The notes under the pieces: generated by a model
Seen by the model: the letters and a program-made list of their open reading frames with translations, nothing else
The model's database searches: none
What the model was told of the DNA's origin: nothing
Source: a virus
Lineage: Duplodnaviria; Heunggongvirae; Uroviricota; Caudoviricetes
Virus record (IMG/VR): IMGVR_UViG_2703718780_000024
Location: 1 to 22,914 of that record
Reading direction: 5' to 3' (one strand)
DNA length: 22,914 nucleotides
Position numbers and translations under genes: made by a program
Shown: positions 12,648-13,133 of the stretch, piece by piece
Position numbering within the stretch: the first letter of the stretch is position 1
How the letters are laid out: every line of letters starts with the position of its first letter

Positions 12648-12809
12648 ATGACCACTATTACCAAAGAACGTATTGAATTGTTCATTAAAAATCCGGTTGA
12701 AAACGGGCTTACCCGTGGTGAACAAATGGAACTGGCACGGATTGCGCTGGCATCGCTGGAAGCAGAGCCAGTTGGTGATTTTTATGAATACAAACCGGAT
12801 GACTGGTAG
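12648..12809 (+). CDS. Small ORF, 53 aa, ending at an in-frame TAG
   Basis: AAGGAG RBS precedes ATG 12648; translation MTTITKERIELFIKNPVENGLTRGEQMELARIALASLEAEPVGDFYEYKPDDW. The same frame stays open after the TAG through to 13133. Confidence 0.45.
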   Translation: MTTITKERIELFIKNPVENGLTRGEQMELARIALASLEAEPVGDFYEYKPDDW

Positions 12810-12875
12810 CAGCGTTCGGCTGGAGATAAAGCGCCAAAATGGACGCCACCCTATGCCGTTTTTCCAGCGCCCGTA

Positions 12876-13133
12876 GTGCCGGAAGAAATGGATTTGCTTA
12901 CATGCCATCTCGATGGTGTAACTGAAACATATGCTGAGGGATGGAACGCTTGCCGCGCTGCCCTGCTTCAGGGCAAAGGGGAGCCCGGGAAACAAGTTCG
13001 CGAATTGACAATGCTGGTTAAACAATTGGTTAGTCAACTGAAGAAAGCGAAACCGGGCTGCAAATTGCCGGATAAAGTGATGGACTACCTGGAGCGAAGC
13101 GGACTTATAAGCGTGGAGGATGTTTCACGATGA
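12876..13133 (+). CDS. Hypothetical protein, in-frame continuation of the preceding ORF; start uncertain (GTG 12876 or ATG 12888)
   Basis: The open frame is contiguous with 12648-12809 across a single TAG. No strong RBS for an independent start. Confidence 0.4.
   Translation: MPEEMDLLTCHLDGVTETYAEGWNACRAALLQGKGEPGKQVRELTMLVKQLVSQLKKAKPGCKLPDKVMDYLERSGLISVEDVSR

Follow-up and report, generated by a model that had tools for sequence, protein, structure and literature searches.

A probable amber-disrupted EaA-like accessory gene in a Rac-like lambdoid prophage

Introduction

At positions 12648 to 13133 of the stretch of viral DNA analysed here (22,914 nucleotides, IMG/VR record IMGVR_UViG_2703718780_000024, hereafter the window), a reading frame is interrupted by a single in-frame TAG and continues open beyond it. 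The question raised by this locus is whether it holds one gene that has lost its integrity, two real genes that happen to share a frame, a gene whose amber codon is read through, or simply an error in the record. An earlier note, made from the letters alone, had left three options side by side, namely a gene of about 161 aa inactivated by a nonsense codon, a sequencing artefact, or two genes. From the earliest O157 genomes onward, each of the two pieces has been entered as a hypothetical protein in its own right (ECs1951/ECs1952, Z2391/Z2390; PMC1890555), and a narrow literature search found no paper in which ECs1951/ECs1952 is treated as one amber-disrupted gene. The evidence gathered here favors the first of these options. 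The region would correspond to a single EaA-like accessory gene of the phrog_660 family that has been disrupted by an amber codon in the course of ordinary prophage gene decay, a reading to which we assign a probability of about 0.88.

Prophage context of the split gene

Positions 12600-13220 (621 bases) recur with 100% identity in a large number of complete genomes, among them those of O157:H7 Sakai and EDL933, O111 and other STEC. The match in Sakai lies within a region annotated as 'prophage Sp10, lambda-like phage', and a single base differs between window positions 9600-16220 and the Sakai sequence. Sp10 has been reported to excise and to be transferred to K-12 (PMC2669165), so that the prophage matching the window at this locus remains mobile. 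In EDL933, the region is a Rac-like lambdoid prophage in which intR (on the ttcA side), xisR, ralR, recT, recE, kilR, sieB and the repressor region are followed by ydaU/ydaV-type replication genes, DUF1627 and DUF977 genes, and a series of small ORFs that includes the broken gene. The order then continues with a DNA cytosine methyltransferase (dcm), an O-methyltransferase, an ATPase, DUF1367, DUF1364 and DUF1133 genes, two tRNAs and the lysis genes.

The earlier description of the frame as a nin-region ORF is correct with regard to position, as it has the replication genes on one side and the late-control genes (DUF1367/DUF1364/DUF1133) on the other. With regard to family it does not hold, because the product is EaA-like and its Pfam, PHROG and NCBIfam matches include no homology to Nin families. 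The placement also differs from that of the EaA-type genes of P22 and HK620, which are found in the early-left (ea) region, whereas the window gene sits between replication and late-control genes and away from the early-left position beside int/xis.

Three matches above the Rfam gathering score, to the RalA antitoxin sRNA (1557-1735, plus strand, 225 bits), the DicF antisense sRNA (6135-6186, minus strand, 77 bits) and the STnc100 sRNA (20166-20338, plus strand, 105 bits), fit a Rac/Qin-like lambdoid prophage. The nin-equivalent region also contains a cargo block at 13565-17064, composed of a plus-strand gene for a DNA cytosine methyltransferase and two genes in the reverse orientation, one for an O-methyltransferase and one for a 463-aa ATP-binding protein. 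Defence or anti-defence is a possible role for this block, and the TAG allele is always linked to it as its flank.

The split reading frame and its translation signals

Translation of 12648-13135 yields, from ATG 12648, a frame of 53 codons that reads MTTITKERIELFIKNPVENGLTRGEQMELARIALASLEAEPVGDFYEYKPDDW up to TAG, followed by 107 sense codons that end in ...LERSGLISVEDVSR before a TGA at 13131-13133. The claim that a single in-frame TAG splits the ORF is therefore borne out by the translation. With a stop-codon frequency of 0.043, taken over all six frames of the window, 107 codons would stay open past a stop by chance with a probability of about 0.009, a figure that carries no weight in any case given the homology. 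The coordinates of the features discussed in this work are collected in Table 1.

Table 1. Coordinates of the split gene, its signals and neighbouring features in the window
Feature	Position	Strand	Remarks
DUF4014 pseudogene	12155..12372	+	PGAP 'frameshifted'; 1-nt G deletion between 12175 and 12176
Shine-Dalgarno AAGGAG for ATG 12648	12636..12641	+	From sequence; duplex with 16S 3' end -8.7 kcal/mol
5' fragment, 53 codons + TAG	12648..12809	+	N-terminal EaA-like module, ends IALASLEAEPV; ECs_1951 / WP_000208018.1
Recombination joint	12741	+	Inside IALASLEAEPV-coding motif
Premature amber TAG	12807..12809	+	Ancestral codon TAT (Tyr); T to G at 12809
3' remainder, 107 sense codons + TGA	12810..13133	+	Middle and C-terminal modules
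27-codon hydrophobic ORF MTWPEAFTTVGIAMAVALVVYSICRWG	13130..13213	+	Own GGAGG Shine-Dalgarno, -9.3 kcal/mol

The two statements of the earlier note about translation signals were confirmed as well. The start at 12648 is preceded by a ribosome-binding site (Table 1), and the downstream part is devoid of a strong one, its candidate restarts being poor (GTG 12876, +1.2 kcal/mol; ATG 12888, -3.5 kcal/mol). Both the Sakai annotation and PGAP present the region as two CDSs, and PGAP calls the second one from ATG 12888 to 13133 as an 81-aa hypothetical protein (WP_000365100.1), that is, the old ECs1952/Z2390. The PGAP calls favor the idea that the locus contains two real genes derived by functional fission, with a useful 53-aa N-module protein and perhaps a separately initiated C-terminal protein of 81-85 aa. 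We regard such a fission as quite unlikely, and the fact that neither restart is provided with a usable Shine-Dalgarno is one of the arguments against it; others emerge from the relatives and the alleles of the gene.

Protein family and modular relatives

When Tyr is restored at the amber codon, residues 1-160 of the resulting 161-aa product match positions 3-192/193 of phrog_660 (PHROGs v4; E = 1.6e-44). Taken separately, the 5' fragment covers only positions 3-60 of the family and the 3' remainder only positions 81-192. Coding as one uninterrupted ORF, which characterizes the family, is broken in the window by the TAG at 12807-12809, and the gene is a disrupted member of phrog_660, in the form of a pseudogene or a truncated allele. 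In the absence of suppression, the interrupted frame cannot yield a protein of the length typical of the family. The 5' fragment also matches the N-terminal parts of phrog_60 and phrog_3323. By tblastn, EaA/DUF551 proteins of HK620, ZX5 and ST-35 were found to be 83-93% identical at their N-termini, residues 1-43/49 are 80-93% identical to proteins annotated as EaA or EaA-like, and residues 1-109 are 55% identical to the 'Truncated P22 EaA protein' of phage g341c. Some of these relatives are named 'Eaa protein' or 'DUF551 domain-containing protein' in databases; the DUF551 domain (PF04448) that is present in the DUF551 relatives is absent from the window protein, which gives no hit to it at E <= 1. 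Pfam and NCBIfam provided no meaningful family for the window protein, a PDB profile search returned nothing below E = 0.26, and nothing relevant was found in the literature on EaA/Ead/Ea22.

EaA-like relatives carry an N-terminal module of about 45 residues followed by varying combinations of other parts. The N-module joined directly to the C-terminal module gives 101-aa proteins, the N-module with the middle module only gives proteins of 116-130 aa (116- and 130-aa forms), and the N-module with the middle module and DUF551 gives 274 aa, with longer combinations of 265 aa. The family thus consists of parts that recombine freely with one another, namely an N-terminal hairpin, middle modules, DUF551 and a C-terminal module. 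The N-terminal module of the window gene, MTTITKERIELFIKNP...ELARIALASLEAEPV, is held in common with the P22 EaA / HK620 hkaE type. Its middle and C-terminal modules are those of the 167-aa protein WP_000137958.1 of phage 666R9 (ON470614, 11984-12487), which is also located after DUF1627 and DUF977 genes, as in the window. Unlike the window gene, the 666R9 gene is intact, with TAT (Tyr) at the site, and starts with an N-terminal module of its own (MTELTKKQL...); its 3' flank is a KilA-N gene, whereas that of the window gene is dcm.

An AlphaFold2 model of an intact homolog (P0007), obtained from an alignment of 44 sequences, is of low confidence (mean pLDDT 57.7, pTM 0.27). It displays a helical hairpin near the N-terminus (residues 6-44, pLDDT 72-81), C-terminal helices, and a predicted disordered stretch at residues 50-81 that would hold the Tyr/TAG site. 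The TAG is placed in a predicted disordered linker just past the N-terminal hairpin, and ORFs restricted to the N-module or to the N-module plus the middle module are normal among relatives (55 aa in 689R5; 101-, 116- and 130-aa forms); both features speak for fission. Against them stand the close relatives, each encoded by one undivided ORF in which the site codes for Tyr.

The case of phage 689R5 (ON470583, 13913-14421) deserves particular attention in this respect. There, a 55-aa 'EaA protein' and a 114-aa hypothetical protein reproduce the layout of a short N-module ORF followed by a C-module ORF, and the similarity to the window is almost complete over the first 42 codons and over the 87-aa gene that precedes them. 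However, the two 689R5 ORFs lie in different frames and overlap by ATGA, whereas the window halves share one frame, and the second 689R5 ORF has a complete N-module and a start codon of its own. The boundary between the two falls elsewhere than the window TAG. The 689R5 pair also exists fused, in proteins of 167/168 aa with two tandem N-modules (P0012, P0019), and the coexistence of split and fused forms suggests repeated fusion and fission in the EaA-like family. The earlier note had proposed a search for full-length homologs and had named, as the result that would speak against a single disrupted gene, homologs consistently encoding two proteins with the same boundaries. Full-length homologs were indeed found, the close relatives carrying TAT at the site, and the homologs do not have the Sakai/PGAP boundaries.

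Alleles at the amber site and origin of the stop

A 61-mer centred on the codon is present in 275 of the 5,426 complete E. coli genomes, with the exact allele being TAG in 173 of them and TAT in 102, and no third allele was found among these 275. In IMG/VR, 8 contigs carry TAG and 10 carry TAT. At the level of phage genomes, megablast showed that window positions 12741-13209 are 98.9% identical to vB_EcoS-666R9, -673R7 and -613R10, in which the matching stretch sits within a single annotated 504-nt CDS. The codon of vB_EcoS-666R9 that aligns with the window TAG is TAT, and its annotated 167-aa protein reads ...YKPDDWYQRSAGDKAPKW... unbroken. The two TAT genomes that were inspected have the same organization, one 504-nt CDS (the 167-aa WP_000137958.1) being immediately preceded by genes for DUF1627 and DUF977.

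A search of 5.8 billion proteins gave a concordant picture, with Tyr at the site in all relatives aligning there (the close full-length ones being P0002-P0007, P0009, P0014 and P0018) and P0001 as the sole apparent exception. This protein is 99% identical and has Gln at the site. P0001 was considered as an intact CAG allele and rejected, since its source contig (contig 314 of Logan SRR27176603, locus L005), a short piece of E. coli prophage, agrees with the window at every base, TAG included; the Gln is evidently an artefact of a gene caller that uses a code reading TAG as sense. At least one metagenome gene-calling pipeline has thus read this TAG as Gln and placed a spurious intact protein in a large database, which calls for caution when stops are judged from protein databases.

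The single-ORF relatives with TAT, the allele counts and the full-length match to phrog_660 all lead to the conclusion that the locus is one gene with a nonsense mutation. From the comparison of sequences, the split is due to a point mutation from TAT (Tyr) to TAG, a T-to-G transversion at 12809. An error of sequencing or assembly in one record has in its favor the prior probability of single-base errors and nothing further, and its likelihood is almost negligible, as the identical TAG occurs in 173 complete genomes produced by many laboratories on many sequencing platforms, and again in the 8 IMG/VR contigs and an independent Logan read assembly. Of the three initial options, the artefact is thus discarded on account of these genomes, the two genes are disfavored by homologs without those boundaries, and the nonsense-inactivated gene of about 161 aa is the one supported by the evidence. 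It might be argued in support of fission that TAG is commoner than TAT and lies behind two different N-terminal modules, but the excess probably derives from the large number of clonal O157:H7 and further STEC isolates that have been sequenced. In the 40 of 1,795 matching records that were listed, all strains with the TAG allele are O157:H7, O111 or other STEC-type.

Allele history and recombination

Upstream of 12741 the window resembles the 689R5 type, and between 12741 and 13209 it follows the 666R9 / WP_000137958.1 type, with about 99% identity. Between 12741 and 13133, the window and the TAT allele show 4 differences in 393 nt: the one at 12746 is synonymous, the one at 12809 changes Tyr to stop, and those at 13047 and 13126 correspond to Ala/Pro and Ser/Leu, respectively. 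All TAG loci have 13126C and a common 3' flank running into the dcm methyltransferase. Their 5' parts are of two different types that switch at 12741. In the first type, which is that of the window, the MTTITKERIELFIKNP... module comes after the 87-aa ORF, the DUF4014 pseudogene and a 70-aa ORF; in the second type (TAG loci L016, L022 and L023), the MTELTKKQL... module comes directly after DUF977. Since two N-terminal modules precede it, the TAG allele went through at least one module exchange. Across the family (P0008-P0060), module exchanges centre on the DNA coding for IALASLEAEPV, which looks like a recombination hotspot or an inter-module linker.

In each of the seven IMG/VR loci that carry the TAG allele at full length, the 107 codons downstream of it are open, with 0 substitutions. 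This zero divergence is uninformative on selection either way, and fission is accordingly left with no divergence on which selection could show. A more elaborate proposal would be that the TAG allele is a selected fission in which the 53-residue N-module works alone and the amber codon, possibly leaky, sets the ratio of short to full-length protein in EHEC prophages. This proposal, which would build on the stand-alone N-module ORFs of other phages, strikes us as very unlikely. A separate lesion, consisting of a 1-nt deletion near the 3' end of a TAT allele (IMG/VR locus L017), fits with the gene being dispensable.

Amber suppression and readthrough

Another way to account for the open downstream frame is that the amber codon is read through, by means of a suppressor tRNA encoded elsewhere or by near-cognate decoding, leading to the production of some 161-aa protein beside the 53-aa form. 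The downstream frame is perfectly kept, and a UAG with C as the next base ranks with the weaker termination contexts in E. coli. However, the kept frame is already accounted for by the total lack of divergence, and no known readthrough signal was identified at the TAG. The earlier note had suggested checking the host for an amber suppressor tRNA, and this check gave a largely negative answer. The only tRNAs in the window are Met/Ile-CAT and Arg-TCT, with no suppressor tRNA among them, and the supF allele is found in 0 of the 5,426 complete E. coli genomes. The supE allele appears in 155 of these genomes, and every one of the 60 that were listed is a K-12 laboratory strain; its recovery in K-12 serves as a positive control for the search of suppressor alleles, which covered the supE and supF types. 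Amber suppression in the hosts that bear the TAG is hence unlikely, and readthrough as a whole is considered highly improbable. As for the tRNA at 19144-19219, ARAGORN classifies it as tRNA-Met (CAT) and the RefSeq annotation of EDL933 as tRNA-Ile of the lysidine-modified ileZ type, a type that is common in Stx-phage-like late regions.

A frameshifted DUF4014 gene upstream

The earlier note pointed to a second split frame nearby, with an ATG at 12151, a TAG at 12169-12171 and a hydrophobic frame open to 12372. These triplets and the open frame are present in the sequence, but the interpretation as an in-frame amber split does not stand, as the feature is a frameshifted DUF4014 gene. Its true start is ATG 12155 (MVTLFRK...), and alignment reveals AGAAAA-AATATCC in the window versus AGAAAAGAATATCC in the intact 933W L0067 and ArgO145 gp12. 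After this deletion the frame meets a TGA at 12233-12235, and the hydrophobic remainder runs on in a frame that happens to contain ATG 12151. The TAG at 12169-12171 was rejected as an amber lesion because it arises only when TTT AGA is read in the wrong frame. With the G restored, the protein covers the whole of PF13198 (1-72/72, E = 4.3e-20) and also matches phrog_1832, a family labelled 'released from the phage upon host infection'. The G deletion is present in every locus with the window-type module (L003, L004, L005, L008, L012, L014 and L024). The DUF4014 gene is located two genes upstream of the amber-split gene, and two of five consecutive accessory genes are therefore broken, one by a nonsense mutation and the other by a frameshift.

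A model for the amber-disrupted gene

If the locus is a single amber-disrupted accessory gene, an early-right operon transcript would span the region, and ribosomes would load at the strong ribosome-binding site of ATG 12648 and stop at the UAG after 53 residues, releasing a product limited to the N-terminal helical module and a short tail. Translation would hardly reach the middle and C-terminal modules, since no usable ribosome-binding site serves the downstream 107 codons directly and an amber suppressor in the host is unlikely. The lesion would be tolerated because the gene would be a dispensable one of the moron type in a Rac-like lambdoid prophage (Sakai Sp10), and its loss would be neutral. 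The data show the mutation itself, the ancestral codon, the frequency of the alleles, the single ORFs of relatives and the strengths of the ribosome-binding sites, whereas the products made and the neutrality of the loss are inferred from them. That the DUF4014 gene is also broken, by a 1-nt deletion, argues for ordinary mutational decay in this part of the prophage. Two points weigh against a disrupted gene. The TAG allele has come through at least one recombination with its downstream frame free of further lesions, although the zero divergence makes this uninformative on selection. In addition, the 53-aa truncated product could be functional rather than a dead fragment, given that N-module-only ORFs of similar length exist in relatives (55 aa in 689R5).

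Nonsense-disrupted accessory genes are commonplace in resident prophages, and the present case is a further instance. Its biological weight is small, since what it adds is a further point mutation that inactivates an accessory gene which the prophage can spare. With regard to annotation, the pairs ECs1951/ECs1952, Z2391/Z2390 and WP_000208018.1/WP_000365100.1 would be better annotated as one nonsense-disrupted gene.

A short ORF adjoining the broken gene

The ATG of the 27-codon hydrophobic ORF and the TGA that ends the broken gene share bases (ATGA, 13130-13133). As this ORF is equipped with its own Shine-Dalgarno (Table 1), it should not require the broken gene to be translated. An identical peptide is also encoded beside the intact TAT allele, and the RefSeq records seen carry no annotation for it. 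In phage 689R5, a 1-nt deletion shifts the ATG of the 27-codon ORF out of frame. The following stretch of about 100 nt in the window (13214-13312) is 91% identical to the 689R5 sequence that lies ahead of a 'host killer protein' (hok-like) gene. A hok coding sequence was sought downstream, with none in the window and no Rfam hit, and the similarity to 689R5 covers window positions 13130-13312 and ends before hok. Positions 13214-13312 may thus be, from their sequence, the truncated leader of a hok/sok-type locus.
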